From IMG/VR virus record IMGVR_UViG_3300042539_001144, positions 1 to 61,534 of that record: DNA of 61,534 bases. The stretch is one strand, 5' to 3'. Positions 1 through 33,504 of this stretch are shown piece by piece (position 1 is the first letter of the stretch; every line of letters starts with the position of its first letter). The position numbers and the translations under genes are program-made. The DNA comes from a virus (lineage: Duplodnaviria; Caudoviricetes). A model generated the notes under the pieces. It searched no databases and was not told where the DNA came from. It worked only from the letters and a program-made list of their open reading frames with translations.

Positions 1-127
1 AGGGGCTGGCGCCGGGTCCTTGGCGGTCGGTCTGGAGCGGTATCGATTGGTCACATTCCGGACTTGGCCGCCGTGCCACGCCCGGCCGGTTCGCTGCCTA
101 GACCCCCATCGGTTCAGGGCCGCGGCA
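1..127. repeat. Terminal direct repeat, copy 1 (assembly overlap of a circular contig)
   Basis: 1-127 is identical to 61408-61534; 127 nt equals a common assembler k-mer length; an ORF reads through the junction. Confidence 0.95.
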
Positions 128-444
128 ATCCGCTCCGTGCTCCAGCCGTGCTCCCGGGCGAGCGTGGCGGCACGCACTACGGCCATCTCGGCCGGGACCT
201 CTTCGAGTTGCCCGTCACGGCGCACCGCGTACCCGTACGGCGGCCTGCCGACCCATACGCCTTCCTCCCGGCAGCGACTCATCCCCTGTCTGATGAGGGG
301 GCCCGGAGCCATGTTCCGGTTGGTGTGATGCGCCCTGCCGTGACACCGACCGCAGAGCGGCACCGTCTTCGTGCCACCGCGGGAGCGGGGGACGACGTGA
401 TGGTCGACCTCGGCGGGTGAGCCGCACTCGAAGCACTCGGGCAT
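1..444 (-). CDS. HNH endonuclease fused to a serine-recombinase-type DNA-binding domain (5' part; 170 aa across the junction; not in ORF track)
   Basis: Hand translation from ATG 444: MPECFECGSPAEVDHHVVPRSRGGTKTVPLCGRCHGRAH (HNH), then GVWVGRPPYGY...LEEVPAEMAVV...GWSTERIAAALNRWG...GRAWHGGQVRNV (Recombinase-domain-like); continues 61407-61339. Confidence 0.8.
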   Translation of the reverse strand, partial: MPECFECGSPAEVDHHVVPRSRGGTKTVPLCGRCHGRAHHTNRNMAPGPLIRQGMSRCREEGVWVGRPPYGYAVRRDGQLEEVPAEMAVVRAATLAREHGWSTERIAAALNRWGSRQRTGRAWHGGQVRNVTNRYRSRPTAKDPAPAP

Positions 445-718
445 GCGCCGAGTTCAGCGCGAGATGGCGAGGTCGCCAATGCGGTCTCGTTTAGGTGCGT
501 TGAGTGCGTGAGAAGATTTTGCGAGTCAACTCGGGGAGGCACGTATATATGGGGCCGTCGCCGCCGGGGGCCGGGGCCGGGGGCATGCCGCCGCCGCCGC
601 GGACGCCGCGGGCCGCGATTCGCAGGGCGGACGCTGTGCAACGAGGGAACCATGGTTGCACACCCCCAAAAACAGCCTTGATTTTGTAGCCGTTCCCTCC
701 CGCCCGCCATCCCTCCGC

Positions 719-758
719 CCGCGTCGTCCGCATTCATCACGCCGCGTCGTCCGCATTC
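719..758. repeat. 17-bp direct repeat CCGCGTCGTCCGCATTC x2
   Basis: Copies at 719-735 and 742-758, in the non-coding region between divergent transcription units. Confidence 0.75.
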
Positions 759-813
759 GTGGGCGATCTTCCCGCCGCGGCGGGCGGACCGCGTTTCCCC
801 CGGCGATATCGGC

Positions 814-832
814 GAGCGGCTGACTGTTCTGG
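814..832 (+). promoter_or_regulatory. Early junction motif copy
   Basis: GAGCGGCTGACTGTTCTGG; matches consensus GATCGGCTGAnwGTTyy. Confidence 0.55.
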
Positions 833-893
833 AGGGACGACCAACACACCGCGACCGCTCCCCTCCGGTGGTCGTGACGATGGAGGATGAACG

Positions 894-1133
894 ATGGACG
901 CGATCCGCACTCGGCAACTCTCGGTGGCCCTCTCTGGCGACGACGCCACGTTGGTCGTCGCGGCACTCGCCGCGTTCCGGGTGGAGATGGAGACCGCCAT
1001 CTTCAACACGGAGCACACCACGGACCACGACGACGACGACGCGAACGATTCCATGGCGATCAACCGCCGCCGGATCGCACAGTGCCAGCGGTTGTGCGAC
1101 CAGATCGTTTCGGCCCTCGTCTTCGCCCGCTGA
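894..1133 (+). CDS. hypothetical protein
   Basis: GGAGG RBS; 79 aa; first gene of the early block. Confidence 0.7.
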   Translation: MDAIRTRQLSVALSGDDATLVVAALAAFRVEMETAIFNTEHTTDHDDDDANDSMAINRRRIAQCQRLCDQIVSALVFAR

Positions 1134-1137
1134 TCGC

Positions 1138-1157
1138 TGATCGGCTGATTGTTTCGG
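1138..1157 (+). promoter_or_regulatory. Early junction motif copy
   Basis: TGATCGGCTGATTGTTTCGG. Confidence 0.65.
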
Positions 1158-1170
1158 ACACACCACCACG

Positions 1171-1206
1171 ACGGCCCGCACGGGAGCGTTTCCCGCTGCG
1201 GGCCGT
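1171..1206 (+). other. GCGTT-loop bulged hairpin
   Basis: ACGGCCCGCA-CGGGA-GCGTT-TCCCG-C-TGCGGGCCGT, followed by TTTCAGGAG RBS. Confidence 0.7.
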
Positions 1207-1229
1207 TCGCATTTCAGGAGACCCCATCG

Positions 1230-2126
1230 ATGATCGCGTGCAACACCACCACCGGCCCGGTTCCCCTGATCGAACCGGCGGGCGAAGAGTTTCAGGTCGG
1301 CGAGATTCTCACGACGAACGCCAAACTGGAGAAGGCCCCCGACGGCGACGAGATCATGGTCCGCGGCGTCAGCATGGCACCGGCGAAGCGTAGCGGCGTC
1401 GGCAACGTCTGCCTGTTCGCGACCCGGGCCTGCATCATGGCGTGCGTGCTCTGGTTCGGCGGTCGCACCGTCACCGAGTCCGTGCGGCACGCTGCCATCG
1501 CCCGGACGCTGCTGTTCTTCCTGCACCCCGGCGTGTTCTTCGCCCGCCTCGACCGCGAACTGCGGAAGTGGCTGCGGGCGGCTGAGAAGGCTGGCGTGCG
1601 GTTGTACGTCCGCCTCAACACGGCGTCGGACATCACCTACGCCCCGTGGTTCATGCGGCAGTACCCCGGCTGCACGTTCTACGACTACACGAAGGACTAC
1701 GACCGGGCCTTGGCGTACGGTCGCGGGCTGCTGGCCGACAACTACCACGTCTCGTTCAGCGTGAGCGAATCCACGACGTGGGAGCAGGTCGCCACGCTCC
1801 ACGCCCTCGGCGTCAACCTTGTCGTGCCCGTGTCGTCGCACTACGTGCCGCAGGAGCACCAGTACGGCTACCTGCCCGAGCAGATCGTGTTCGTCGGCCC
1901 CTGCGGCGAGCGGATCACCACCGTCTGCCGCGACGGCGACAAGAGCGATCCCCGCGTGCCGGAGTACGACGGCCGCGGCGTGAGCGTGGGCCTGCGTGGC
2001 AAGGGAACCAACGCCGCGAAGGCTGCCGCGAACGAGCACGAGTTCTTCCGCCCCTTCGGCCTCGGCGACCAGTACTTCGCCGAGTTCCGCCAGAAGGGCA
2101 CCTGCATCGTGCGGCTCGCCGCCTGA
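1230..2126 (+). CDS. GP88-family protein
   Basis: VRLNTASDI, FYDYTK, NYHVSFS, DGDKSDPR and VGLRGKG motifs typical of phage Gp88-like proteins; CAGGAG RBS before ATG 1230. Confidence 0.75.
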   Translation: MIACNTTTGPVPLIEPAGEEFQVGEILTTNAKLEKAPDGDEIMVRGVSMAPAKRSGVGNVCLFATRACIMACVLWFGGRTVTESVRHAAIARTLLFFLHPGVFFARLDRELRKWLRAAEKAGVRLYVRLNTASDITYAPWFMRQYPGCTFYDYTKDYDRALAYGRGLLADNYHVSFSVSESTTWEQVATLHALGVNLVVPVSSHYVPQEHQYGYLPEQIVFVGPCGERITTVCRDGDKSDPRVPEYDGRGVSVGLRGKGTNAAKAAANEHEFFRPFGLGDQYFAEFRQKGTCIVRLAA

Positions 2127-2143
2127 TCGGCTGACTGTTTCGG
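2124..2143 (+). promoter_or_regulatory. Early junction motif copy
   Basis: TGATCGGCTGACTGTTTCGG, overlapping the stop codon. Confidence 0.65.
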
Positions 2144-2180
2144 AGTACTGATTCCCCAACCCTCAACGGAGACCCTGACC

Positions 2181-2534
2181 ATGTCCTGCGTCGGCTACAA
2201 ACTCTGCCGCTGCCGTCACTCCACGCCGCACCTTCGCGGCATGGTGGCTTCGTGCCGCCACTCCGGTGCCACCGTGTACCGCATCCGCGTCTGGTTCGGC
2301 GGGCTAACGCCCACCACCGAGAAGCGGGCCACGAAGTGGTCGGCATCCCGGCTGCTGTCCGACGTCATGCGTCGATACCCGCAGGCCGTGCGGATCGACA
2401 TCGACTGCGACACATCGCGTCCCTGCACCGAGGACTCACCCAAGGGCGTCATGTGGGTGGCCGCGAAGCCGCAGACGGTCGAGTGGGAGCGTGACCGCGA
2501 CTGCTACGAGATCAACGACGAGTACCGTTCCTGA
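2181..2534 (+). CDS. hypothetical protein
   Basis: GGAGACCCTGACC-ATG leader; 117 aa. Confidence 0.65.
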   Translation: MSCVGYKLCRCRHSTPHLRGMVASCRHSGATVYRIRVWFGGLTPTTEKRATKWSASRLLSDVMRRYPQAVRIDIDCDTSRPCTEDSPKGVMWVAAKPQTVEWERDRDCYEINDEYRS

Positions 2535-2562
2535 CCCCAACCCCAACCCGGAGACCCTGACC

Positions 2563-2847
2563 GTGAACGTCCACCTCAATGCCGATGCCCCCAACGCCAA
2601 CGATGTGCCGACGCTGCACAACCTGACCTACATGACGCTCGCGGAGTACTGCCGGGTCGGCGGCTTCGACGAGGAGGTCATCCGCGAGACGCTCGCCCTC
2701 TGCGAGGTGACTTGGGGATCGCCTGCCACGGAGACATTCCTCCGTGCGTCCGACGTTGCCCTCGCCTGCGAGTTGCACTGCGTCGATTCTGCGGGGGCTG
2801 TGCCTGCTGGCATCTCCCCCGACCTGTTCGTGCGGCTCGACGCCTGA
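2563..2847 (+). CDS. hypothetical protein
   Basis: Identical GGAGACCCTGACC leader before GTG 2563. Confidence 0.65.
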   Translation: MNVHLNADAPNANDVPTLHNLTYMTLAEYCRVGGFDEEVIRETLALCEVTWGSPATETFLRASDVALACELHCVDSAGAVPAGISPDLFVRLDA

Positions 2848-2870
2848 CCACACACCCACAACCCAGTACT

Positions 2871-2906
2871 GCGGCCCCGCCGGGAGCGTTTCCCGAGCGG
2901 GGCCGC
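2871..2906 (+). other. GCGTT-loop bulged hairpin
   Basis: GCGGCCCCGC-CGGGA-GCGTT-TCCCG-A-GCGGGGCCGC, then GTTTCAGGAG. Confidence 0.7.
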
Positions 2907-2930
2907 GGTCGTTTCAGGAGGAGAGTTCCC

Positions 2931-3311
2931 ATGATCCGCGTTCGATTCCACCTCGGTGCCGGTGCCCACTTCATGCACTGGCAGATCACGCACCACGACG
3001 GCAGCGTGACCTACCACGACCCCGACGCCTGCACCCTCACCATCTGGCAGGGCAGGCTCCGCAACCAGCCCGCCGCTGCGGCCCGCATCCACGCCGGTGC
3101 CAACAAGACCGTGTGTGCGTGGATCGAAGCCGAGCGGGTGGACGTTGACCCGGGCGTGTCGGGCGTGATGGGCGGTGCCCACGCTTCCTACAACCCGCGG
3201 GTCGCACCTCACTGGGTGATCAACGGACAGAACTCGGACGGTCGCAGGTTCCCGGTGCTCACCACCGCAGGGAGCCGCGTGTTCGTGCCCGAGATGCAGG
3301 CGATCGGCTGA
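2931..3311 (+). CDS. hypothetical protein
   Basis: AGGAGG RBS; MIRVRFHLGAGAHFMHWQI start. Confidence 0.7.
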   Translation: MIRVRFHLGAGAHFMHWQITHHDGSVTYHDPDACTLTIWQGRLRNQPAAAARIHAGANKTVCAWIEAERVDVDPGVSGVMGGAHASYNPRVAPHWVINGQNSDGRRFPVLTTAGSRVFVPEMQAIG

Positions 3312-3320
3312 TAGTTCTGG
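3302..3320 (+). promoter_or_regulatory. Early junction motif copy
   Basis: GATCGGCTGATAGTTCTGG; its TGA is the upstream stop codon. Confidence 0.65.
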
Positions 3321-3351
3321 ATCGACAACCTCAACACGAAAGGACGATGCG

Positions 3352-3756
3352 ATGACCATGCGATTTGAAGGCAAGTTCCAGTGCAACCCGCAGCCCGGCG
3401 ACTTCCTGACCCTGAACGTCGGCAGCGTCGAGGTGCGGGCCACCATCAAGCACGACGGCCACTCCCGGCCATCGGACTACGAGTGCTACACGCCAGCCGA
3501 CTGCGAGTCGTGGAGGCGGGGCGAGTGGTACTTCTGCGGCGTCGTGATCTCCGTGCGTGCCAACGGCCGCTCGGTGGACGAGCACCACGAATCCCTGTGG
3601 GGCATCGACGTCAACAACTCGGGCGACTACGTCACCGAGATCGCCAACGACATGGCGAAGCGTGTCGATCTGACCGAAATCGCACTGCGTCTCGGCGAGT
3701 GCTCGCGATCCCTGCGTAACGCACGGGACTCGATGCTGCTCGGCTCGCCCGTCTGA
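3352..3756 (+). CDS. hypothetical protein
   Basis: AAGGA RBS; 134 aa. Confidence 0.7.
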   Translation: MTMRFEGKFQCNPQPGDFLTLNVGSVEVRATIKHDGHSRPSDYECYTPADCESWRRGEWYFCGVVISVRANGRSVDEHHESLWGIDVNNSGDYVTEIANDMAKRVDLTEIALRLGECSRSLRNARDSMLLGSPV

Positions 3757-3841
3757 CCCCGGCCCGTGGTCGGCAGCCCTCCGCGTGGCGGGCTGCCATC
3801 CGTGGATCGTGGATCGCTTGAACCTACCGGAGTACTGAATC

Positions 3842-4297
3842 ATGGCTGACGTGAAGTGGTCGGTGAGCAATGACCGCGAAGACGACGAGGCGTATATCGA
3901 GAACGAGCGTGGCGTGGAGTGCGTCCAGATTCAACGCACAAACGGCCCAGCCCTGACCCGGGGCGAGTTCGACGTGATCGTCGACCTCATCGCTGCCGCA
4001 CCGGAGATGCTCGCCGCACTGCGTGACCTGCGTGCCACGCTGGAGGCGTTGACGGGGTGGCGTGAACTCGACGGCACGCAGATCGATCAACTCATCGCCA
4101 GCGATGGGCTGCACTACCTCGACAAGGTCATCGCCAAGGCCGAGCCGGTTCGCGAGGTTCGCCGGAAGGTGGAAGTCACGGTCGAGGTCACACTCGACGT
4201 GCAGGCGGGCACCGATGACGCCACCCTCGCCATGATCGCGGTCGATGCGGTGCGTGACGGCGGCGGCGCTGTCACTGCCCACAAGGTGATCGGCTGA
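3842..4297 (+). CDS. hypothetical protein
   Basis: LIAAAPEMLAAL motif common in phage early proteins. Confidence 0.75.
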   Translation: MADVKWSVSNDREDDEAYIENERGVECVQIQRTNGPALTRGEFDVIVDLIAAAPEMLAALRDLRATLEALTGWRELDGTQIDQLIASDGLHYLDKVIAKAEPVREVRRKVEVTVEVTLDVQAGTDDATLAMIAVDAVRDGGGAVTAHKVIG

Positions 4298-4306
4298 TAG
4301 TTCCAG
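4287..4306 (+). promoter_or_regulatory. Early junction motif copy
   Basis: TGATCGGCTGATAGTTCCAG. Confidence 0.65.
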
Positions 4307-4314
4307 ACACACAG

Positions 4315-4356
4315 ACCACGACCCCGGCAGGTGCGTTGCCTGACCGGGGTCGTGGT
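4315..4356 (+). other. GCGTT-loop bulged hairpin
   Basis: ACCACGACCCCGG-CAGGT-GCGTT-GCCTG-A-CCGGGGTCGTGGT, then GTTTCAGGAG. Confidence 0.7.
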
Positions 4357-4370
4357 GTTTCAGGAGGTGC

Positions 4371-4718
4371 ATGATGAATCGGTATCAGTTCACGAACGCG
4401 GCGGGCTTTCGCCTCGTCGAGCGGTGCCTCAAGTTCAACACCGCGATGACGCTCGGCGAGGTGCCGTGCCTTGAGGTGGAGGGGTGGCTCGCGGTGGAGG
4501 GGTATCGCGGCGAGTTCGCCATGCACGAGTTCGTGCAGTGGCTCAAGGCCAACGCCCCGTCGTCCACGTCCGCAGCCAAGGTGCTCGGGCTGGTGGCGAT
4601 GGGCATGGCATCGGAGATGGTTCGCGACCGGGAGTTCATCGACAAGGTGGAAGCGTTCCACTCTGCGATGACCCGGCGGTTCGGTGTGGACAAGAGCGAC
4701 GTGAAAGGGGGCGAGTGA
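4371..4718 (+). CDS. hypothetical protein
   Basis: AGGAGG RBS; 115 aa. Confidence 0.7.
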   Translation: MMNRYQFTNAAGFRLVERCLKFNTAMTLGEVPCLEVEGWLAVEGYRGEFAMHEFVQWLKANAPSSTSAAKVLGLVAMGMASEMVRDREFIDKVEAFHSAMTRRFGVDKSDVKGGE

Positions 4719-5047
4719 TGCGACGAGGCACCAACGTCATGCGGCTCCGCGATGAGCGGGCCAAGGACATGAAGGCGGAGCGGTGGTCGAGGGTCAACGT
4801 GCGGGGCATCAACCCGTACACCATCGACCGGGTGGTCGGCACCTTCACCACGGAGTTCTCTCGCACTGGGCGGAGCCTGCCCATCGGCGAGTACTCCACC
4901 GTGGAGGTGCGGGCGTACGACGTGCGGTGCCCGGACGGCACCACGTTCCGGTTCGCCCGACTGAAGGACGCGAAGACGTTCATCGTGTACGAGAGCAACG
5001 GCCTCCTCATCCCGGCAGCCCTCGCTGCTGGCCTGAAGGTGGGCTGA
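4718..5047 (+). CDS. hypothetical protein
   Basis: TGATG coupling to the upstream gene. Confidence 0.6.
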   Translation: MRRGTNVMRLRDERAKDMKAERWSRVNVRGINPYTIDRVVGTFTTEFSRTGRSLPIGEYSTVEVRAYDVRCPDGTTFRFARLKDAKTFIVYESNGLLIPAALAAGLKVG

Positions 5048-5355
5048 TGCGAACCGTCACGGAGGACGAGTACCGGGTGAGCAAGCGAGTCGTGCTCACG
5101 CCCGGCGTGAAGTTCAGGGCAGGCGGCGGGCCGTACTACCGCCTGTCCGATGGCACGAAGGTGAGCCTCGCTGCGGCGGGCCCCTTCACTTTCGTCCGCT
5201 GCCACAGGCGGGGGAAGTACGTGCTGATCGAAGCACTCGACAGGAATGGGTGCTTCGCTCCGCTCCATGTGGCAGGCCGACGGGCAAGGATCACGCCCGC
5301 ACTCGTGCCTCGTCCCTACGTGATCCGTTCCACGGTGAGGAGGAAGGAATCGTGA
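5047..5355 (+). CDS. hypothetical protein
   Basis: TGATG coupling; MRTVTEDEYRVSK start. Confidence 0.6.
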   Translation: MRTVTEDEYRVSKRVVLTPGVKFRAGGGPYYRLSDGTKVSLAAAGPFTFVRCHRRGKYVLIEALDRNGCFAPLHVAGRRARITPALVPRPYVIRSTVRRKES

Positions 5356-5762
5356 AGACCGCGAAGCGAGTGGATCTCCGCCCCATCCGGGCTGCGTTCC
5401 GTGAGTTGATGAAGTACGGCATCCTCTGTGAGGGTGGCCGGTGGACGTGCTGCCAGTCGTGCGGACAGCACGACATGCAGTTGCGGTGGGACAAGGCGGC
5501 CGAGGGCGAGAAGCCTCTCGGCTACGCCTTCTGGCACGCACAGGACGACGACCTGCTGCGTGAGACCGGCGAACTGTGGCTGGCGTTCAATGCCTTCGAT
5601 CAGGTCGACTCCCGGTTCGTGGGCAACCTCGTCGTCGGCGTGCTGAAGAAGCACGGCGTGCGGGCACGGTGGAAGGGCGACGTCCGCACCCGGATCGAGT
5701 GCATCCTCGGGTGGCGCGAAGTGGGCGTGCGATTCGTCACGAAGAAGGGAGGTGCGAAGTGA
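5352..5762 (+). CDS. DUF6891-like protein
   Basis: AFREL..GI...TCCQSCG, GYAFWHAQD, LWLAF and WKGDVRTRI pattern; GTGA coupling. Confidence 0.6.
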   Translation: MKTAKRVDLRPIRAAFRELMKYGILCEGGRWTCCQSCGQHDMQLRWDKAAEGEKPLGYAFWHAQDDDLLRETGELWLAFNAFDQVDSRFVGNLVVGVLKKHGVRARWKGDVRTRIECILGWREVGVRFVTKKGGAK

Positions 5763-5962
5763 GTGGCGATGACGTGCGAGAGACGGTGGCTGGTTTCATG
5801 CGGGCGGCTGGACTGCACCCGTCGCTGATCTACGCCTTCCGCAAGACGGGACTGTTGGTGGGGGAGGATACGCCCCACTCGGATGCAGAGCGGAAGGAGT
5901 TCGTCGATGCCGCCGATGAGTGGTGGAGCCAGAACGAAGTGGTGAAAGGAGGTGCGAAGTGA
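5759..5962 (+). CDS. hypothetical protein
   Basis: MRAAGLHPSLIYAFRKTGLLV; GGAGG RBS; GTGA coupling. Confidence 0.65.
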   Translation: MSGDDVRETVAGFMRAAGLHPSLIYAFRKTGLLVGEDTPHSDAERKEFVDAADEWWSQNEVVKGGAK

Positions 5963-6033
5963 GAGACGAGCAATGGATGCTCGTGATCGAGGTGATCCGC
6001 GTGATCATCGAGATCATCCGGCACGGAGGCTGA
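5959..6033 (+). CDS. small hydrophobic peptide (24 aa)
   Basis: GGAGG RBS, GTGA coupling; MRDEQWMLVIEVIRVIIEIIRHGG; stops at the junction motif. Confidence 0.45.
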   Translation: MRDEQWMLVIEVIRVIIEIIRHGG

Positions 6034-6049
6034 TCGGCTGAGTGTTTTG
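6031..6049 (+). promoter_or_regulatory. Early junction motif copy
   Basis: TGATCGGCTGAGTGTTTTG. Confidence 0.6.
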
Positions 6050-6054
6050 ACGAG

Positions 6055-6098
6055 GCACGGCAGGCCACGGGGGAGCGTTTCCCTCGTGGCCGCCGTGC
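6055..6098 (+). other. GCGTT-loop hairpin
   Basis: GCACGGC-A-GGCCACGG-GGGA-GCGTT-TCCC-TCGTGGCC-GCCGTGC. Confidence 0.65.
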
Positions 6099-6170
6099 TT
6101 TACGGGGGTGGACGGACTCATTGACGGCACCCGGATGATGAACGAGTACTCAATCACAAAGGACTGACAG

Positions 6171-7052
6171 ATGATCGCAACCAATCTCCCCTCGGCTGCC
6201 GAGGGTGCTCTCGTTTGGGTGAACCACGCCGGGCGTGTCCGGGTCAACGTGGTTCGCTCCGTGTTCTCGAACCTCGGGCTGGCGAAGTGCCTGCCCCGCA
6301 AGGAAAAGCGGGCCATCGCCCTGCGGCTGGCGATCAAGGCGTGGCTGATCGCACGGTACGGGAGGAAGGACGCCCGCACCATGCGTCTGTACCCGCTCGA
6401 CCGCCGGGTGCTCGGGTTCGAGGTGCGTCGGAAGGTGGATGGCACCGAGCAGAACGATCACCCGTACGTCTGCACCGTGAAGGCCGACGACCACGGGGCG
6501 TACGTCACGTACGCCGGTGCGGCTGGCCCGCAGCAGGAGACCGACGACGTGACCCGCATCTACCTCGACCGCGTCGAGTGGTACTGCGGCACGACGGTCG
6601 GCTCGCTGATCAAGCGTGCCATCACCGAGAAGTGGATGGGCACCTCGCTCAAGAGCAACGGCGGCCTGTACTTCCTGCCCGGCCAGTACCTGCCCAACTA
6701 CCGGGCGCTGGCCGACGGCATGGAGCGGAGCCCGTCCAACCCGGACTCCGAGTTGGTGATGACCGTCGCCACGTTCGACGTCCGCAACAACCCGAGCGTG
6801 GCCCGTGACGCGATGCTCTCGCTGCGGCAGGAGATCAAGGCGGCGACCGACGAGATCAACGCAGACCTCGTCGGTGCCCACGAGATGACCGAGTCGGGCA
6901 TCGCCAACCGCAAGGCCCGGCTGGCACGGCTGCTCGCACAGGCGGCGGAGTACTCCGCCCTGTTCGAGGCCAGCATCGACGACCTGAAGGGCATGGTCGA
7001 GGGCACGCAGAGCGCCCTTGCCATGGCCGAGTTGGCCGAGGCTTCCGCCTGA
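6171..7052 (+). CDS. hypothetical protein, DUF3150/DUF6744-like
   Basis: GGLYFLP motif and coiled-coil C-terminus; lies beside the AAA/VWA pair. Confidence 0.55.
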   Translation: MIATNLPSAAEGALVWVNHAGRVRVNVVRSVFSNLGLAKCLPRKEKRAIALRLAIKAWLIARYGRKDARTMRLYPLDRRVLGFEVRRKVDGTEQNDHPYVCTVKADDHGAYVTYAGAAGPQQETDDVTRIYLDRVEWYCGTTVGSLIKRAITEKWMGTSLKSNGGLYFLPGQYLPNYRALADGMERSPSNPDSELVMTVATFDVRNNPSVARDAMLSLRQEIKAATDEINADLVGAHEMTESGIANRKARLARLLAQAAEYSALFEASIDDLKGMVEGTQSALAMAELAEASA

Positions 7053-7068
7053 TCGGCTGTGTGTTCTG
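7050..7068 (+). promoter_or_regulatory. Early junction motif copy
   Basis: TGATCGGCTGTGTGTTCTG, then a GC hairpin at 7081-7111. Confidence 0.6.
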
Positions 7069-7143
7069 AGCGATCTCGATGCGGGCGGCGGGCACTGTGC
7101 TCGCCGCCCGCCCTGTTTCACCCCCGAGTTGGAGGACTCTTTG

Positions 7144-8262
7144 ATGTTCAGTCACCCCATGTGGTTCGCGTTCGTTGTCATGCAGACCATGATCCCCACC
7201 CTGCTGATCGGCCCGCCGGGCTGCGGCAAGACGGCCTCGATCATGGCTCTCTCCCACGCCATCAAGCGGCGGTTCGTTCCGCTGATCGGCAGCCAGTGCT
7301 CGCCCGAGGACGTGTCCGGCCTGCCCGTGCCGGACATGGTGAAGTTCCTGTGCCGCATGATGCCCATGTCGTGGGTCGAGGCACTGCTCACCCCGGGCGG
7401 GCTGCTCGCCCTCGACGAGTTCGGCAACACGCCCCCGTCGGTGCATGCCTCGCTGCTCACCGTGATTCAGGACAAGAGGGTCGGCGACCTGACCCTCGAT
7501 CTGGACACGATGATCGTGGCGATGATGAACCCGCCGGAGCAGTCGCCCAACGGCACGCCGCTGTCGCTGCCCACTGCCAATCGGTTCTTCATCACCGAGT
7601 GGAAGAACGACACGGCAGCGTGGATCGACGGGCTCGCAGCCGGGTGCGAGTGGGCTGCCCCGCAGATGCCCATCCTGCCTGACGACTGGAAGACTCGCGT
7701 CCCCCGGTGGGGTGCGCTGCTCGCCACCTATCACCGCCGGTTCCCCGGCCGTGACAACGTGCTGCCGAAGGACGACACGATCCTCCGCTACCCGACCGAG
7801 CGGTCGTGGAGGAACGCCGTTCACTGCCTCGCTGCTGGCGAGGCTGCGGGTGCGGACATGTGGACCGACCAGTCCAACGTCCGGCTCATGGCAGCCGGGT
7901 GCGTCGGTGATCAGGCGGCCGACGAGTTCTGCGAGTGGAAGAGCACGTTCGACATGGCCGATCCGCTCGACATCCTCGACGGCAAGGTGACGTTCAAGCA
8001 CCGCGACGAGCGGCCGGACATCACGATGACCGTGCTCGCTGCTCTCGCCTCGGCGGTGAGCACCGAGTCCACGTTCACGCCGGACCGCTGGGATGCGGCG
8101 GCCATGATCTTCGGTGAGGTTGGCAAGACCAGCCACCCGGAGATGGCGCTCCGCTACACGCGGCTGCTGCTCGATGCGACGGCGAAGTTCAAGCACGCCC
8201 CGTCGGCGAAGGTGCTCAAGCCCCTCGTCGAAATGAACGCGGCGATGAAGGTGGGCGGCTGA
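7144..8262 (+). CDS. MoxR-like AAA+ ATPase
   Basis: Walker A GPPGCGKT, Walker B LALDEF, sensor MNPP, arginine finger ANRF, PTERSW. Confidence 0.9.
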   Translation: MFSHPMWFAFVVMQTMIPTLLIGPPGCGKTASIMALSHAIKRRFVPLIGSQCSPEDVSGLPVPDMVKFLCRMMPMSWVEALLTPGGLLALDEFGNTPPSVHASLLTVIQDKRVGDLTLDLDTMIVAMMNPPEQSPNGTPLSLPTANRFFITEWKNDTAAWIDGLAAGCEWAAPQMPILPDDWKTRVPRWGALLATYHRRFPGRDNVLPKDDTILRYPTERSWRNAVHCLAAGEAAGADMWTDQSNVRLMAAGCVGDQAADEFCEWKSTFDMADPLDILDGKVTFKHRDERPDITMTVLAALASAVSTESTFTPDRWDAAAMIFGEVGKTSHPEMALRYTRLLLDATAKFKHAPSAKVLKPLVEMNAAMKVGG

Positions 8263-8271
8263 TTGTTTCGG
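8253..8271 (+). promoter_or_regulatory. Early junction motif copy
   Basis: GGGCGGCTGATTGTTTCGG, then a GC hairpin at 8274-8303. Confidence 0.6.
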
Positions 8272-8333
8272 GAGGGGCGGCTCGTCACGGTGGCGGGCCG
8301 CCCCATCCCGACCAACACACAAGGGACACAGCG

Positions 8334-9914
8334 ATGGACGCGATGCGAGCGAAGGTTGCCCAGTTCAGGACGGCGGTGAAGAAGATTCTCCCGTACTTCA
8401 CGGGCGAGGTCTACGGCATGATCGCCATCGAGGAGAAGCGCGTCGGCACGATGGCGGTCGACGAGCAGGGGCGGATGTACTACGCCCCCGAGTTCGTGCG
8501 TCGGTGCTCGATCGAGCAGGGCCGGTTCACTGTCTGCCACGAGACGCTGCACGTTGCGCTCGGCCATGCTCGGCTGGCCCGCAAGATTCTCGGCGACAAC
8601 CCGACGCAGTCCATGCTCAAGGCGTGGAACTACGCCGCCGACTGCGTGGTCAACCAGATTCTCGGTGCGTACCTGCACGAGGCGCCGGGCGAGGACGTGC
8701 TCGGCCCGGGTGCCACGATCGTGACGCACCAGACGCTCGGCCTGCCGCCGCGGCTGACCATCACGCAGTACTACGACCTGCTCATGCAGCAGCAGCAGGA
8801 GCAGCCGCAGAACCCGGGCCAGCGTGGCACGGGCAAGGACGATGACACGGAGGACGACGAAGATGAAGACATGGAAGGGGCCGGTGAAGGTGAGCCTGAT
8901 GATCGGGACGGCGAACCTGACGAGCAGGGAGGTGGTGATGGTGGGGAACAAGACGTTCCTCACGATCCTTCTGAAGGCGATGGCGAGGGTGGCGAAGAGG
9001 ACGAAGGCGACGACGACGGTGAAGGTGAGGGTGGCGCTCGTCCCGGCGAAGGAGGTGCCGAACGGGACGGTGGTGCTGATCGCCCGTCGCAAGATGGCGT
9101 CGAGGATTCGTCGGACGCTGAAGGCGAAGGGTGCGACGGCGACCCGGCCGACGACGGTGGGGACGGGTCGTGGTCTCCGACTGGCGGCAGCGGCGCTGAC
9201 GGAGTGCCTCGCGGATACGAGGCCGAGCGAGACCCCTCGTGGGTCGACCGCGAGTACTCGCTCGCCAAGCAACTCGAAGCCGCCATCGAGGAAGCCGAGC
9301 GATCGTCGCCGGGCTCCGTCCCGGGCGAGTTGAAGGCGGCGGTCGGCCTCCGGCTACGGCCACAGCCTGACCCGTACGACGCTCTGCGTGCGTCCGTGGC
9401 TCGGGCTGTGGCCTCGCCGGTCGGTGCCCCCGACTTCACGCTGAAGCGGTTCAGCCGCAGGCAGCAGCCGGGCATGCCGCGCCTGCGTGGCGTGAACAAA
9501 CTCACGCCCAACGTCGTGGTCCTGCTCGACACGAGCGGGTCGATGGGCTTCAGATGCCCGGGCTACGAGCGAGCGGAGCGTGCCCTCGACGTGATCGCGA
9601 AGGGCATACGGAAGTTGAAGTCCGTGCGTGTCATCTGCTGGGACACGCAGAAGCACAGTGCCCGCATGGTGCAGTCCATGCAGGGCTTCGAGGTGCAGGG
9701 TGGTGGCGGCACCGACATGGGGCAGGCCATCGAGACGATCGACAAGGAACTCCGGCCCGACGCCATCCTCATGGTGACGGACTTGGAGACCGGCTGGTGT
9801 GAGCGGAAGCCTAGGGCCCGTGTCGTGATCGCTGCGACCGAGGCGCCGAGCGAGTACTACCCCGTGCCGGGATGGGCGACTGTCGTGGACCTGACACGCG
9901 GAGGTGGGCAATGA
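8334..9914 (+). CDS. DUF2201-family metallopeptidase-VWA protein
   Basis: HETLH zinc motif, WNYAAD, long acidic linker, MIDAS DTSGS, GGGGTD, MVTD. Confidence 0.88.
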   Translation: MDAMRAKVAQFRTAVKKILPYFTGEVYGMIAIEEKRVGTMAVDEQGRMYYAPEFVRRCSIEQGRFTVCHETLHVALGHARLARKILGDNPTQSMLKAWNYAADCVVNQILGAYLHEAPGEDVLGPGATIVTHQTLGLPPRLTITQYYDLLMQQQQEQPQNPGQRGTGKDDDTEDDEDEDMEGAGEGEPDDRDGEPDEQGGGDGGEQDVPHDPSEGDGEGGEEDEGDDDGEGEGGARPGEGGAERDGGADRPSQDGVEDSSDAEGEGCDGDPADDGGDGSWSPTGGSGADGVPRGYEAERDPSWVDREYSLAKQLEAAIEEAERSSPGSVPGELKAAVGLRLRPQPDPYDALRASVARAVASPVGAPDFTLKRFSRRQQPGMPRLRGVNKLTPNVVVLLDTSGSMGFRCPGYERAERALDVIAKGIRKLKSVRVICWDTQKHSARMVQSMQGFEVQGGGGTDMGQAIETIDKELRPDAILMVTDLETGWCERKPRARVVIAATEAPSEYYPVPGWATVVDLTRGGGQ

Positions 9915-10648
9915 CGTTCGACGAACAGGTGGCTGCGCTGCGTGGGAAGGTGGAGCCGAAGCAGTTCAGGGGCGGGAAAGGCGCTGCCACGCCAGAGCAG
10001 TGGGCCGCCCACCTTGACGACGCAGTGCTTTACAAGCGGGCGAGGGCAGAAAGCAGCCCCGAGTGGAGACATCGCTACCGAGAGGCCGACCGCACCTACA
10101 CGCGAGAGTGGAAAAGGAAGAACGCCGGGAGAGTGCGGGAGTACAAGGCAGCGCGGCGCAAGGCCGGGGCCGACGCAGTTCGAGAGCGCGAATACCGCGA
10201 GAAGAACCGGGGGAGGATTCGCGAACGGTACCGGTCGTGGTGTGCTCGTGCTCGCTCAACGGACGTCCACTACCGACTCGTCAAGTCCGTCCGCGGAAGG
10301 CTCCGCGTGGCCGTGAACGGTGGCTACCGATCTGGCTCCGCCGTCCGTGACCTCGGCTGCTCGATCGAGGAACTCAAGTCCCACATCGAACGGCAGTGGG
10401 TCGGCTGTATGTCTTGGGAGAACTGGGGCAGCGGGCCGGGGACTTGGCAGATCGACCACGTCTACCCGCTGGCACAGACAGACCTGACCGACCGGGCCCA
10501 ACTGCTGGCGGCCTGCAACTGGCGGAACCTTCAGCCGATGTGGTTTGAGGACAACGTACGCAAGGGCGATACCGTCACGCCCGAAGCGCAGCAACTGTTT
10601 GACGGGCTGGTCTCGGAGTTCACGGAGGTGCGTGATGAAGTTGCGTAA
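9911..10648 (+). CDS. HNH endonuclease
   Basis: MSWENWG...WQIDHVYPL...NWRNLQPMW..N.RKG; ATGA coupling. Confidence 0.8.
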   Translation: MTFDEQVAALRGKVEPKQFRGGKGAATPEQWAAHLDDAVLYKRARAESSPEWRHRYREADRTYTREWKRKNAGRVREYKAARRKAGADAVREREYREKNRGRIRERYRSWCARARSTDVHYRLVKSVRGRLRVAVNGGYRSGSAVRDLGCSIEELKSHIERQWVGCMSWENWGSGPGTWQIDHVYPLAQTDLTDRAQLLAACNWRNLQPMWFEDNVRKGDTVTPEAQQLFDGLVSEFTEVRDEVA

Positions 10649-11309
10649 GTCGCAGAAGGAGTCGTGGCTGATGCGGGTGCTGATGGATCGGAAGGCCCGG
10701 CCCCTGCCGTACGTCGGAGGCATAGACCTCATGCCCATGGGCCGCACGCTGCTGCGGAAGTGGGCCGACAGGTACTGCGGCGGGTACGGGAAACTCACGC
10801 CGGAACATGCGGTCCGACTGCACGATCGGCTTGTAGTTATGGCGAAGGACATCGACGGTGCGGTCGTCGAGTGCGGCATGGTTCGTGGCCCGGCGTGGCA
10901 GCCCGGATACCTGTGGGCCTACGGTGCCATCGCCGTGCTCGACGAGTACGGCCGGGCGACCAGCGGGTCGGTGCTGATCCCCGGTGCCTCGGCCGTGCCG
11001 TACTACGTGCGCCGCAGCCTGACCAGTCCGAGGCAGTACCACCGCAGCCTCCGCCTGTGGGATGACCTGTGCCCAGTGATCGAGGACATCGCGTCCCCGG
11101 AGACCGTCACCCTCAACCGGAATCAGGTCGCCCGCAAGGACGACGTGAGACCCGGCGACTGCTATCTCTACGACCTGACCCGGGCGCACTCGCCGCGGGT
11201 GGTCGTGGAGAACTTGTACTTCGGCCGGGCCTGTCGGTTCGGCCTGCTCGACGAGATGATTGATACGGCACGGTGCCGTATCGTGTTCGGTTCCCTCGCT
11301 AGTGCGTGA
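10635..11309 (+). CDS. hypothetical protein
   Basis: GGAGG RBS before ATG 10635. Confidence 0.65.
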   Translation: MKLRKSQKESWLMRVLMDRKARPLPYVGGIDLMPMGRTLLRKWADRYCGGYGKLTPEHAVRLHDRLVVMAKDIDGAVVECGMVRGPAWQPGYLWAYGAIAVLDEYGRATSGSVLIPGASAVPYYVRRSLTSPRQYHRSLRLWDDLCPVIEDIASPETVTLNRNQVARKDDVRPGDCYLYDLTRAHSPRVVVENLYFGRACRFGLLDEMIDTARCRIVFGSLASA

Positions 11310-11317
11310 GGTGTGCG

Positions 11318-11413
11318 ATGAACTATCCGTCGGTCCTTGAGATCGTGCAGACGTGGTGCATCATTGTCTGCGTGTACTTCTTCCTCGTAGCCCATAACAG
11401 AATGAGGGTGTGA
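11318..11413 (+). CDS. small membrane peptide (31 aa)
   Basis: GAGGTG RBS; MNYPSVLEIVQTWCIIVCVYFFLVAHNRMRV; fills the gap between neighbours. Confidence 0.4.
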   Translation: MNYPSVLEIVQTWCIIVCVYFFLVAHNRMRV

Positions 11414-11414
11414 C

Positions 11415-11774
11415 ATGACTGGACGATACTGGATGGTCGTGCGGCCCGGCAGATGGTCGCCGGACGAAAAGCGGTTCCCCACCGGGGCCGATGCTCTTGA
11501 GTACGCGCTTCGCTTGGTTCGCCGGGCCAAGCGCAGCGCATTCGTGAAGCACAGGGAGCACTGCCCCGTGCGAGTCTTCGTGGTGACCATGTACGGCGAC
11601 ACCCCCGACGGCATCGCCTACGAGACGGCGATGTACGAGACCGGCGGGCGAGGGGATTACCCAAACTCCGGGCGGTCCATCGACACGGAGTTGCAGGCCG
11701 AGGTCGATGCATCGTGGCAGCACTACTTCATCCACAACCCTGACCAGAAAAGTCTTGAAGAGGAGGACGACTGA
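11415..11774 (+). CDS. hypothetical protein
   Basis: 119 aa; TGATG-coupled to the recombinase. Confidence 0.6.
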   Translation: MTGRYWMVVRPGRWSPDEKRFPTGADALEYALRLVRRAKRSAFVKHREHCPVRVFVVTMYGDTPDGIAYETAMYETGGRGDYPNSGRSIDTELQAEVDASWQHYFIHNPDQKSLEEEDD

Positions 11775-12556
11775 TGGCTACGTGCTACGGATACGGTCGA
11801 GCCAGCACCGACAAGCAGGAACTCACCGAGCAGGTGCAGTCCAAGTCGGTCAAGGAAAAGTACTCCGCCCTGCTCAAGCCCAAGGGCGTCAAGTGGGGCG
11901 GGTGGTACTACGACGCGGCGGTCTCGGGCAGCAAGCCGTTCACCGAGCGGCCCGCTGGCCTGCGCATGTGGATGAACCTCCAGCCCGGGGACTACGTGGT
12001 CACGCACCACAGCGACCGTGCGTTCCGTGACACGGCCGACGGCCTACGGACCTCGGCCCTGTTCCGGGCGAGGGGCGTCGTGCTTGTGATGCCTGACATC
12101 CCGCACGATCTGGAGACTGCGGACGGCGAGATGATGGCGACCATTCAGTTCGCATTGAATCTCCGCGAGCGCCGCAAGGTGGCGGAGCGTACCGCCGCTG
12201 CCATGCGCGTGCTGTCCGAGCGCGGCGTCCGGTTCGGCGGGGCCCGGCAGAGCACGCCAATCGGCTGGCGGTGGGGCGGCGCGGGCTACGTCGAGGACGC
12301 GGAGGAGCGGGCCCGCGTCGAGCAGATGGCCCAGTGGTACGAGTCCGGCCTGTCGCTGGAACGCATCGAGATGCGTGTGTCCTACCCGCCGTACCAGTGG
12401 AAGAGGCGCAGCACTAGCAGTCGCTTCGGAAACTGGTCTCGTCGGTACGTGGCGTTCGCTCTGGAGGCTCGTCGTCTTGGCTATCCGAAGGTCTTCCTGA
12501 ATGGTCGGAGACGCAAGACCGCAGCGCGTCCAGCGCATCAAGCATCCGCGACTTGA
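11774..12556 (+). CDS. serine recombinase (resolvase family)
   Basis: YGYGRASTDKQ catalytic Ser, SG..PFTERPAG, GD.VV...DRAFR, ERRKVAERT helix. Confidence 0.9.
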   Translation: MATCYGYGRASTDKQELTEQVQSKSVKEKYSALLKPKGVKWGGWYYDAAVSGSKPFTERPAGLRMWMNLQPGDYVVTHHSDRAFRDTADGLRTSALFRARGVVLVMPDIPHDLETADGEMMATIQFALNLRERRKVAERTAAAMRVLSERGVRFGGARQSTPIGWRWGGAGYVEDAEERARVEQMAQWYESGLSLERIEMRVSYPPYQWKRRSTSSRFGNWSRRYVAFALEARRLGYPKVFLNGRRRKTAARPAHQASAT

Positions 12557-20406: not shown

Positions 20407-21258
20407 ATGGGGTCAATGGGTGAGGTGGCTGGGAACTACCTGCTGGGAAGAGACGTCTCGCGGGGATACGCGGCGAACATCCGGAGGACGGCGGCGAAGA
20501 TGGATGCCGCTGGGATCACCCCTGCGAACATCGATGGCACGCGCGTCAACATCTGGCTCTCCTCCATGAGAACGTCTGGTCTGTCGCCGATCAGTATACG
20601 GTCTGAGCGCCGCAGCGCAATCACAATCTGGCGGCATGGGATCGAGATCGAGGTGATCAAGAATCCCATCCGCCATGTCGTCCAGCCGAAGGTCCCTCGC
20701 AGGGTCACTCGTGCCTTCCGACGCGACGATCTTACGGGTGCTGTCAATAGGTTCAGCGATCTCAATATCTCGGCGCGTTTTCGGGGTAGCGGCTGCCCGA
20801 AGGCGCTCTGGCTCACCGCGTGGACCATGTTCGTCTACGAAACCGGGGCCCGATTCTCCGACGCCTACTCCCTCCGTGGCGAAGCACTCGTTCACGGCGG
20901 GGTTGCGTGGACAGCCAGCAAGACGGGCCTGCCCGTGATCAAGCGGCTGTCGCAGAGTACCGCGGAACGCTTGCAGCAACTGCTGGCACTCTCGCCGGAC
21001 GGCACCGTGTTCCAGTGGGCCGTGTCGAGGCGCCACGCTTTCGCCGCGATCCGCGAGGCGTACGAGGCGGCGGGCCTGAAGGGCGGCCGGACGCAATGGC
21101 TGCGGCGAAGCGGGGCGACCCACGCAGAGATGGACCGGAAGGGGGCCGCGATGGAGTATCTGGCTCACGCCACGCCCGGGCTGGCCGAGACGAACTACCT
21201 CGACTACACGCAACTCCTCGACCGGATCGCAGCGCCACGGCCGCTGGACGCAGGGTGA
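20407..21258 (+). CDS. int: tyrosine recombinase / integrase
   Basis: YETGARFSD (R), ASKTG (K), WLRRSGAT, LAH, TNY (Y). Confidence 0.85.
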   Translation: MGSMGEVAGNYLLGRDVSRGYAANIRRTAAKMDAAGITPANIDGTRVNIWLSSMRTSGLSPISIRSERRSAITIWRHGIEIEVIKNPIRHVVQPKVPRRVTRAFRRDDLTGAVNRFSDLNISARFRGSGCPKALWLTAWTMFVYETGARFSDAYSLRGEALVHGGVAWTASKTGLPVIKRLSQSTAERLQQLLALSPDGTVFQWAVSRRHAFAAIREAYEAAGLKGGRTQWLRRSGATHAEMDRKGAAMEYLAHATPGLAETNYLDYTQLLDRIAAPRPLDAG

Positions 21259-33081: not shown

Positions 33082-33504
33082 TCACGGCAGGGCGCCGGGG
33101 TAGCGGGAGCCGCGGCGAATAGCCAGCGCAATCACCGCTTTCCCCGCGGCGTTTGCGTAGGGGAGTTTCCTCTTGCCAGCCTCCTCGGCCAGCCACGAGG
33201 AGATCAGGTCGACGTTGTCCCGGCACCACTGGATGCCGCGCTGGTCCATTTCTTTGGCCCTGCGGTTGCACTTGCAGCCCGGCTTCGACGTGATCCCGAT
33301 CATCTTCAGCAGGCCCTTGAGGGCGGTCCCTGCTCCCGGCGGAGGCTCGGCCTTCGGGGGCCTGACCCGCGGGTAGGCGGGGTGGGTCTCATCGACAGTC
33401 CAGAGGTCCCCGTGCCGGGCGACGACGCAGGGCTCGACCTCCTGCCATCGGTAGCCACGCTCCTTGCATCGAGCGATGAACAGGTCTCGGTGTCCTGTGA
33501 TCAC
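33082..33504 (-). CDS. conserved phage protein
   Basis: GAGTALKGLL..IGI...GCKCNRRAKEMD.RG..WC; coupled to the Cys-rich gene. Confidence 0.7.
   Translation of the reverse strand: MITGHRDLFIARCKERGYRWQEVEPCVVARHGDLWTVDETHPAYPRVRPPKAEPPPGAGTALKGLLKMIGITSKPGCKCNRRAKEMDQRGIQWCRDNVDLISSWLAEEAGKRKLPYANAAGKAVIALAIRRGSRYPGALP

Follow-up and report, generated by a model that had tools for sequence, protein, structure and literature searches.

The DNA analysed here is a complete virus record from IMG/VR (IMGVR_UViG_3300042539_001144) of 61,534 bp, with direct terminal repeats and 66.6% G+C; this whole stretch is referred to as the window. Its rightward genes, many of them small open reading frames (ORFs), extend from ~890 to ~13,000, and the remainder is mostly leftward and includes the terminase, portal, major head, helicase and RecE-like exonuclease genes. 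Within the rightward early operon, four long stem-loops (c1–c4), each capped by the pentaloop GCGTT, lie just past stop codons. They form a real, structurally conserved and paralogous family, whose function is most likely an ordinary one, namely punctuation of the operon. The hairpins and their downstream neighbours are as follows:

1170–1207, + strand: c1, stem of 16–17 bp, loop GCGTT at 1186–1190, unpaired C1196 on the 3′ arm
1212–1214, + strand: TTT downstream of c1, then AGGAG (1216–1220) and the ATG of a GP88-family gene (1230)
2868–2909, + strand: c2, stem of 18 bp, loop GCGTT at 2886–2890, unpaired A2896 on the 3′ arm
2912–2914, + strand: TTT downstream of c2, then AGGAGG (2916–2921) and the ATG of an L5 gp82-like gene (2931)
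4315–4356, + strand: c3, stem of 18 bp, loop GCGTT at 4333–4337 with a T·G closing pair, unpaired A4343 on the 3′ arm
4358–4360, + strand: TTT downstream of c3, then AGGAGG (4362–4367) and an ATG (4371)
6052–6101, + strand: c4, stem of 22 bp, loop GCGTT at 6075–6079, unpaired A6062 on the 5′ arm, no bulge on the 3′ arm

A first-pass annotation of the sequence had noticed four long stems with this loop. They are present as it described them and are the only such hairpins in the record. A script that examined all 107 GCGTT sites in the window found at least 16 flanking pairs at four, c1–c4, all on the + strand. The other sites with at least eight flanking pairs are a 12-pair site inside a coding region on the − strand (6846–6875) and an 8-pair site at 20766–20788. 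The word itself is not enriched (107 found versus 141.7 expected); the peculiarity of GCGTT is its location at the tips of paralogous stems and not its frequency.

The predicted folding energies of c1–c4 are −32.7, −39.9, −37.5 and −44.8 kcal/mol (z-scores of −4.3 to −6.1), with 1, 0, 0 and 0 of 200 shuffled sequences folding equally well. The + strand holds seven hairpins of −31 kcal/mol or lower, against a mean of 0.9 (range 0–2) in 20 simulated sequences of the same dinucleotide content, and five of these seven strongest hairpins are in intergenic gaps between 1170 and 8311. The stems of c1–c4 begin 17–36 nt past stop codons (1133 to 1170, 2847 to 2868, 4297 to 4315 and 6033 to 6052).

In three of the hairpins, again as first described, one base of the 3′ arm is unpaired 5 bp below the loop. 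The unpaired base of c4 sits 12 bp below the loop, on the opposite arm, and the TTT at 6099–6101 is able to make weak terminal pairs with 6052–6054. The description of the family as lying upstream of early ribosome-binding sites (RBSs) holds for c1–c3, each of which is followed by TTTCAGGAG (1212–1220, 2912–2920 and 4358–4366) ahead of the start codons at 1230, 2931 and 4371; this sequence occurs nowhere else in the genome. It fails for c4, which has no adjacent RBS and is followed by TTTAC, with the next start codon 70 nt away. About 20 nt past c4, a TTGAC at 6121–6125 (+ strand) is kept in all three related genomes and may belong, as its −35 element, to a promoter of the gene block that follows; a convincing −10 element was not found there.

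Conservation of pairing across copies and relatives

Two related viral contigs contain all four hairpins. L009 (G001) is the closer relative, with 98% amino-acid identity in GP88, and L081 (G002) is more distant. Cultured phages gave no nucleotide match by megablast, a single 75-nt match within the GP88 gene by blastn, and two weak terminase matches. A GP88 scan for prophage relatives in genome contigs returned 43 pattern matches, none of which was confirmed. The public sequencing runs that contain the region are all labelled as lake-water metagenomes, and among those containing window positions 800–6200 there are no RNA runs.

Searches with pieces of the hairpins gave a similar picture. The 15-nt hairpin tip returned 113 stretches from IMG/VR, with stems of at least nine pairs at 22. 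Two stretches came from the relatives (L070, which is the L009 contig, and L081), and the rest are unrelated, several being ordinary terminators. A 20-nt piece of c3 returned only the L009 and L081 relatives. A metagenome scan with the c2 flank gave six short contigs, in which the only new variants are an A or T at the bulge and a GCGTT or GCGT loop. The family is thus confined to a narrow lineage of uncultured lake phages, each genome having four copies.

Judged by their likeness, c1–c4 are paralogues of one repeat unit: as direct-repeat families, c1 and c2 are 71% identical over 63 nt, and c1, c2 and c4 are 79% identical over 28 nt. The first-pass annotation had pointed to inner stems that differ in sequence while keeping their pairing (CGGGA/TCCCG versus CAGGT/GCCTG), and this covariation is real. 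Between c2 and c3, four positions of the 5′ arm differ, each with a matching change in its partner. Covariation statistics were calculated for nine copies, namely c1–c3 from the three genomes; c4 was read from its folds and left out of the count because the MAFFT alignment mis-registers its inserted base pair. In these nine copies, 94.8% of cells are paired, and both sides have changed at 8 of the 17 pairs (26 cells). The covariation score is 0.492 as compared with 0.183 in shuffled alignments, none of 500 of which reaches it, and sliding the 3′ partner register by 1–3 columns leaves only 38–50% of cells paired.

The orthologues illustrate how pairing has been kept. In c1, an A-T pair is replaced by C-G in L009, whereas in L081 the entire inner stem is rewritten and the loop is still GCGTT. 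In c2 of L081, pairing is preserved through a bulge that has migrated by one position together with wobble pairs, and the 40 nt of c3 in the same genome (11613–11652) are identical to window 4316–4355. For c4, a G-C pair becomes A-T in L081, and one G and one C inserted in L009 make a new base pair. Selection on the sense-strand structure, which the first-pass annotation had proposed, is well supported by the pairing, the covariation score and the slid registers.

A covariance model built from c1–c3 alone recovers c4 with 33 bits in the window and 39.3 bits in L009. On the + strand of the window it has no match beyond c1–c4 at E < 1, it finds no further members in the contigs L010, L011 and G003/G004, and it misses c4 of L081, the copy with the loop TCGGT. 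Rfam has no match in the region (gathering threshold over the whole window; E up to 1 over 450–8500), and neither Rfam nor the canonical-terminator scan described below explains the hairpins. The sole Rfam match in the genome is a full-length DUF3800-VIII RNA motif at 58392–58457 on the − strand (58.9 bits; gathering score 40.2). In L011, positions 10850–11085 follow a GP88 relative of 48% identity: the gene is succeeded by a palindrome with TAGTTC and then by a 17-bp hairpin with the loop GCGA, after which a 33-nt tandem repeat extends up to the contig end. The same hairpin is present in L010 (5369–5407).

The loop is identical in all four hairpins of the window, as the first-pass annotation stated, but it is less constant among relatives. 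Across the 12 copies it is GCGTT in ten, GCGT in c2 of L009 and TCGGT in c4 of L081; GCGT recurs in one metagenome contig from the c2-flank scan, and variants of the c2 loop in population contigs include a G-to-A substitution and the loss of one base. The bulge had been called fixed. It is present on the 3′ arm in eight of the nine copies of c1–c3, but it is missing in c1 of L081, has both moved by one position and changed base in another orthologue and is found in no copy of c4, and the bulged base may be C, A, G or T. This variation speaks against base-specific recognition of the bulge, and that of the loop weakens the case for its recognition without excluding it. Thus, the variability of loop and bulge argues against base-specific recognition of the MS2/PP7 kind.

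The linear motif and the variable genes around the hairpins

The linkers that carry the hairpins also contain a linear motif of 16 nt. Its core is CGGCT-N4-GTTYYRR (fuller form GATCGGCTGAnnGTT), and eight copies are present versus 0.11 expected by chance. The cores start at 817, 1142, 2128, 3305, 4291, 6035, 7054 and 8256, all on the + strand and in the early operon only (817 to 8271). They overlap or follow stop codons, often with two consecutive stop codons inside, and the motif is conserved in the relatives, with six copies in L009 and five in L081. A strong hairpin (c1, c3, c4 or one of two others, h5 and h6) comes after five of the eight copies, directly or within 12 nt, and the linker is laid out as the 16-nt motif, a C/A-rich spacer, the hairpin and TTTCAGGAG. 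The motif copies and the two other hairpins are:

814–833 (core 817–832), + strand: linear motif, upstream of the first early gene (894)
1139–1158, + strand: linear motif, core ending 12 nt before c1
2125–2144, + strand: linear motif, overlapping the GP88 stop codon, no hairpin after it
3302–3321, + strand: linear motif, containing the stop codon of gene 2931–3311, no hairpin after it
4288–4307, + strand: linear motif, containing the stop codon of gene 3842–4297, core ending 8 nt before c3
6032–6051, + strand: linear motif, directly before c4
7051–7070, + strand: linear motif, before h5
7081–7111, + strand: h5, stem of 14 bp, loop CTG, −30.5 kcal/mol
8253–8272, + strand: linear motif, overlapping the 5′ arm of h6
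8268–8311, + strand: h6, stem of 20 bp, −40.2 kcal/mol, starting inside the motif copy at 8253, no T run after it

The hairpin h5 repeats this architecture (motif, hairpin, GTTTCA) but falls outside the GCGTT family in its sequence. An IMG/VR scan with the linear motif matched at least 120 stretches, and each of the 80 listed has a single match; no other lineage with multiple copies is found among the 80 listed. Neither a promoter scan nor reading by eye revealed a sigma-70-like −10 element in the motif, and sigma-70, extracytoplasmic function (ECF) and sigma-28 promoters were dropped by eye; the key −10 positions vary. The motif could possibly be an operator resembling the 'stoperators' of mycobacteriophages, an RNA signal or a recombination linker.

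The genes between the linkers differ among close relatives. Compared with L009, the window has extra or replaced ORFs, with shared-block borders at 2126/2828, 4367/4769 and 5709/5944, and the motif copy at 2125–2144 forms the left edge of a two-gene block missing from L009. Direct repeats border two of the indels, 20 nt long at the first and 26 nt long at the third. Direct repeats at 2107–2126 versus 2828–2847, 5744–5769 versus 5944–5969 and 2154–2183 versus 2536–2565 (20–30 nt, 77–95% identical) are situated at ORF ends or RBS regions and flank blocks missing from L009; other short intergenic repeats are numerous. Since the indels are bounded by direct repeats, homologous recombination is indicated. 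In L009, c2 directly follows GP88 and c3 precedes a different gene start.

The same pattern is seen in populations. GP88 is replaced behind an intact c1 in two lake runs, and contigs from lake metagenomes skip or exchange individual ORFs, with the breaks precisely at the ORF borders. A total of 15 joints was recorded in contigs of four lake runs, and 21 of their 30 ends are within 30 nt of an ORF boundary, a zone that makes up 24% of the region. These are DNA contigs, which do not reveal where molecules start or end; joints at low likeness may stem from repeats or from another organism, and the ends depend on one another. One of the 30 ends falls inside a hairpin unit and six lie within 20 nt of a unit edge. 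Because the break points flank the units and do not cut them, the hairpin units persist while the flanking ORFs change. The early region is hyper-variable and cassette-like, with the linkers left intact as the ORFs between them are deleted, inserted or replaced, and the linkers would therefore also serve as conserved joints for cassette shuffling.

For the survey of the encoded proteins, 38 ORF translations were scanned, 28 against Pfam, 18 against PHROGs and 8 against both. Family matches in the rightward genes include GP88, an L5 gp82-like protein, DUF6891, DUF6744, an AAA_5 ATPase, a VWA/DUF2201 protein and a small serine recombinase. Pfam families and base composition are the grounds for calling these genes actinophage-like, a label we use provisionally. 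Four large ORFs on the − strand (21596–25318, 25322–27805, 27813–31379 and 33501–36164, encoding 1240, 827, 1188 and 887 aa) had no Pfam or PHROG match, and no tRNA gene is found in the 61,534-bp window. All three related genomes keep a block with the sequence ATTTTG..GTCAACTCG..GTATATATGGG (515–556, + strand) upstream of the first early gene. This A/T-rich island within a 67% GC genome may be the early promoter or an operator. A 23-nt tandem direct repeat occupies 708–753 (+ strand).

Possible roles of the hairpins

Several features suggest that the hairpins act as RNA. All copies are co-directional with the genes, and folding favours the + strand over the − strand in 10 of the 12 copies, the exceptions being c1 of the window and of L009, by 1–2 kcal/mol. 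The + strand structures contain 0–3 G·U pairs each, which would be mismatches on the opposite strand. A run of three T follows every stem, with two T invariant in all 12 aligned copies (alignment columns T53 and T54). Because the run is also kept at c4 and at the unrelated hairpin h5, neither of which has an adjacent RBS, it is not merely part of an RBS context.

Like canonical terminators, c1–c4 are GC-rich hairpins past a stop codon and co-directional with the genes. Hairpins with a T tract are not above chance in this genome: four scans found 2, 12, 12 and 5, as compared with 5.1, 9.6, 9.5 and 3.9 expected (31 versus ~28). The strong hairpins are accordingly the only visible punctuation of the genome. 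A paucity of canonical terminators is typical of high-GC lineages.

Terminators with shorter U tracts have been described in such bacteria. A Term-seq study of Streptomyces clavuligerus (PMC8269248) assigned a 3′ end to the intrinsic terminators when its stem was below −23 kcal/mol and three or more U occurred among the 8 nt behind it; read-through at three non-terminal ones was 0.06–0.72. Under this 'HS-U-rich' rule, c1–c4 qualify if the stem is ended before the first T. With the stems as drawn by RNAfold, the 8-nt tail holds three T at c1 and c2, two (window and L009) or four (L081) at c3, and one or two at c4; the low counts at c3 and c4 reflect the assignment of T-run bases to the stem in these folds, and ending the stem before the first T gives three each. 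PMC3993855 reports that mycobacterial RNA polymerase accepts weaker U-tracts than that of Escherichia coli and that NusG aids sub-optimal terminators. For Bacillus subtilis, PMC8060035 describes NusG-dependent terminators with weak terminal A-U or G-U pairs, interrupted U-tracts and a TTNTTT pause motif, and the base of c4, where G·U, A-U and G·U pairs form with its own TTT, matches that description. The identical 15-nt tip also caps canonical T-tract terminators in five unrelated viral contigs (L032, L046, L063, L106 and L124), and in L032 (IMGVR_UViG_3300033121_001564) the same bulged A is found 5 bp below the loop.

From these sequence features, we give about even credence to the reading that c1–c4 are leaky, sub-optimal intrinsic terminators and/or stem-loops that protect 3′ ends, that is, the punctuation of the operon. 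This is the simplest reading and was absent from the first-pass annotation, as were the linear motif and the shuffling of cassettes around the hairpins. The hairpins would be transcribed within the rightward early operon, each folding in the sense RNA shortly behind a stop codon, with a short U run directly after it. They would punctuate the polycistronic early transcript either as leaky intrinsic terminators, to which NusG might lend help of the kind described for mycobacteria and Bacillus, or as barriers against exonucleases at 3′ ends, or as both. In either role they would determine how abundant the upstream cistrons are relative to the downstream ones. At c1–c3, the Shine-Dalgarno sequence of the next gene, 5–8 nt further on, would be left unstructured, whereas c4 would close the first block of small genes.

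Several points weigh against punctuation by termination. The U-rich tract of ~7–9 nt that characterizes canonical terminators is lacking, and a scan that asks for at least five T in eight calls none of c1–c4. A run of only three U followed by G/C-rich sequence is very weak. According to PMC3993855, Mycobacterium bovis RNA polymerase in vitro read through a hybrid terminator in which the tract next to the hairpin was all U and the downstream part GC-rich, and it also failed to terminate at hairpins without U-tracts, so that the real termination efficiency of c1–c4 may be low or nil. The 16–22-bp stems exceed what a terminator needs, and termination calls neither for a loop that is nearly constant (10 of 12 copies) nor for a bulge that recurs (8 of 9 copies of c1–c3). 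At c1–c3, conservation of TTT could be part of the RBS context; h6 has the same architecture and no T run; and the L011 hairpin, possibly related to c1 through outer-stem letters in common but not matched by the covariance model, also lacks TTT. Lastly, an actinobacterial host is presumed only from Pfam families named for mycobacteriophage L5 proteins and from 66.6% GC. Because the tract of three U with GC-rich sequence downstream is weak, we word the reading as leaky terminators and/or protectors of 3′ ends that are formed otherwise.

Processing by RNase III, or another double-strand-specific nuclease, is an unlikely alternative. Cutting of the early RNA at the hairpins would leave a protective 3′ hairpin on the upstream message and a free RBS on the downstream one. 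The intercistronic position within a run of early genes, the nearly perfect duplexes of 16–22 bp, the presence of several similar sites within 6 kb, the RBS 5–8 nt past c1–c3 and conservation of structure rather than of sequence would all be in keeping with this. The early-region RNase III sites of phage T7 consist of about two duplex turns interrupted by an asymmetric internal loop with the cleavage site. As with c1–c4, several hairpins of like structure separate early cistrons there, within the first kilobases. No internal loop of that kind is present here, only one bulged base, which relatives have lost or shifted; the duplexes are shorter, c1–c3 falling under two helical turns; and a conserved T run follows the stem, which at c4 and h5 processing would leave unexplained. 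We regard the hairpins as candidate cleavage sites only.

Rather less probable is that the hairpins bind an RNA-binding regulator of phage or host, either as a nut-like antitermination site made of linear motif and tip or as a translational operator for the following gene. The tip is a 5-bp stem with a pentaloop set off by the bulge, about the size of lambda boxB, its loop remains GCGTT in 10 of the 12 copies even with the inner stem rewritten (c1 of L081), an RBS is adjacent at c1–c3, and the conserved linear motif precedes c1 and c3 by 8–12 nt and lies directly against c4, h5 and h6. In lambda nut, boxB is a short stem with a GNRA-like pentaloop, accompanied by an upstream linear element, boxA, and by the N protein. 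The loops here depart from that pattern (GCGTT, and GCGT or TCGGT in relatives), they vary and the bulged base varies or is missing, as set out above, and four to eight sites per operon would contrast with the two nut sites of lambdoid phages. In addition, no RNA-binding or antiterminator family was found among the scanned ORFs. It is doubtful, then, that motif and tip together form a repeated cis-acting RNA signal, nut-like or put-like, that is read by a phage or host factor, and it would be an outside chance for such a module before each weak terminator to switch the early operon between attenuation and read-through. What speaks for this nut- or put-like reading is that the loop stays the same where the stem has been rewritten and that five of the eight motif copies come with a hairpin. 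If true, it would define a new class of structured-RNA regulators in phages of high-GC bacteria; otherwise the hairpins are ordinary punctuation.

The idea that the units are DNA repeats with no role in RNA, such as recombination joints or selfish palindromes (REP/MITE-like, attC-like or like the promoters of phage N4), is highly improbable. Paralogous repeats do border variable ORF cassettes, one arm does carry an extrahelical base, and crossover points of T4-type phages were mapped within the stem-loops of PeSL elements (PMC2839356). The break points here flank the units (1 of 30 joint ends inside), the indels are bounded by ordinary direct repeats, the outer stem ends share no conserved boxes, and the recombinases among the scanned ORFs are serine recombinases only, with no RNA polymerase. 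The strictly single orientation, better sense-strand fold and conserved T run fit RNA better. Integron attC sites have conserved outer core boxes, a cassette junction inside the site and a nearby tyrosine integrase, and N4 promoters are short hairpins used by a virion RNA polymerase. Both had been put forward in the first-pass annotation, and neither is supported: the outer stem ends here are unconserved, cassette break points flank the hairpins and no tyrosine integrase is seen among the scanned ORFs, while the stems are 16–22 bp long and no RNA polymerase family was matched (10 ORFs against Pfam, 8 against PHROGs).

Comparison with known systems

Among known elements, the sub-optimal U-tract terminators of high-GC Gram-positive bacteria and of Bacillus (PMC8269248, PMC3993855 and PMC8060035) share with c1–c4 a GC-rich stem past the stop codon (−31 to −45 kcal/mol here), co-direction with the genes, three or more U among the 8 nt that follow and, for c4, weak terminal A-U or G-U pairs. 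Unlike them, c1–c4 have long stems and a U run of exactly three that gives way to G/C-rich sequence, and are paralogues with a common loop and recurrent bulge, located within an operon and directly before RBSs.

The SAS/ESAS elements of Cluster K mycobacteriophages are a second comparison. PMC3203893 describes a conserved sequence that includes the RBS before some genes and is preceded by a 17-bp inverted repeat; its half-sites keep a conserved consensus whose departures are unmatched in the partner arm, and the authors saw little support for an mRNA hairpin. The likeness lies in an RBS-containing conserved sequence after an inverted repeat, in one orientation, in genomes of the actinophage type. 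In the present family, the arms differ between copies and covary, and TTTCAGGAG is found at three hairpins only rather than as a genome-wide signal.

Stoperators of Cluster A mycobacteriophages are short asymmetric sites present in many copies, in one orientation relative to transcription, within short intergenic gaps. The linear motif alone is comparable to them in its position, asymmetry, overlap with stop codons and presence in a phage with recombinase- or integrase-type genes. It differs in its unrelated sequence and its confinement to the early operon, and no repressor for it was identified.

A further parallel is offered by the PeSL cassettes of T4-type phages, which PMC2839356 and PMC4122927 describe as linkers of conserved promoter, stem-loop and Shine-Dalgarno sequence between ORFans, acting as terminators or attenuators and as sites of modular shuffling. 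Both systems consist of conserved composite intergenic elements, ~60–100 nt long, that separate small ORFans of a hyper-variable region. Each element has a stable stem-loop, interpreted as a terminator or attenuator, ends in the Shine-Dalgarno sequence of the next gene and lies where close relatives differ by ORF insertion, deletion or replacement. A repeated composite element with stem-loop and terminal Shine-Dalgarno sequence at indel and replacement borders is what we find in this window as well. In contrast to PeSL, no sigma-70-type promoter was detected in the linkers, where the 16-nt motif stands in its stead; a search over 1–12000 gave one promoter-like site (11337), none in the linkers, using an E. 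coli-type consensus that a divergent promoter could escape. Moreover, the phage is a high-GC one of another lineage, and its stems evolve by compensation, whereas the word 'compensatory' does not occur in the text of PMC2839356.

The hairpins thus represent a small structured-RNA family with compensatory evolution, outside Rfam, from an uncultured lake phage lineage without cultured relatives. They illustrate how an early operon may be punctuated where the genome lacks canonical terminators, and the population data show that small early genes are swapped in nature. In this respect, the linkers of c1–c4 would be a high-GC counterpart to the PeSL idea, in which regulatory linkers double as joints for the shuffling of small early genes.

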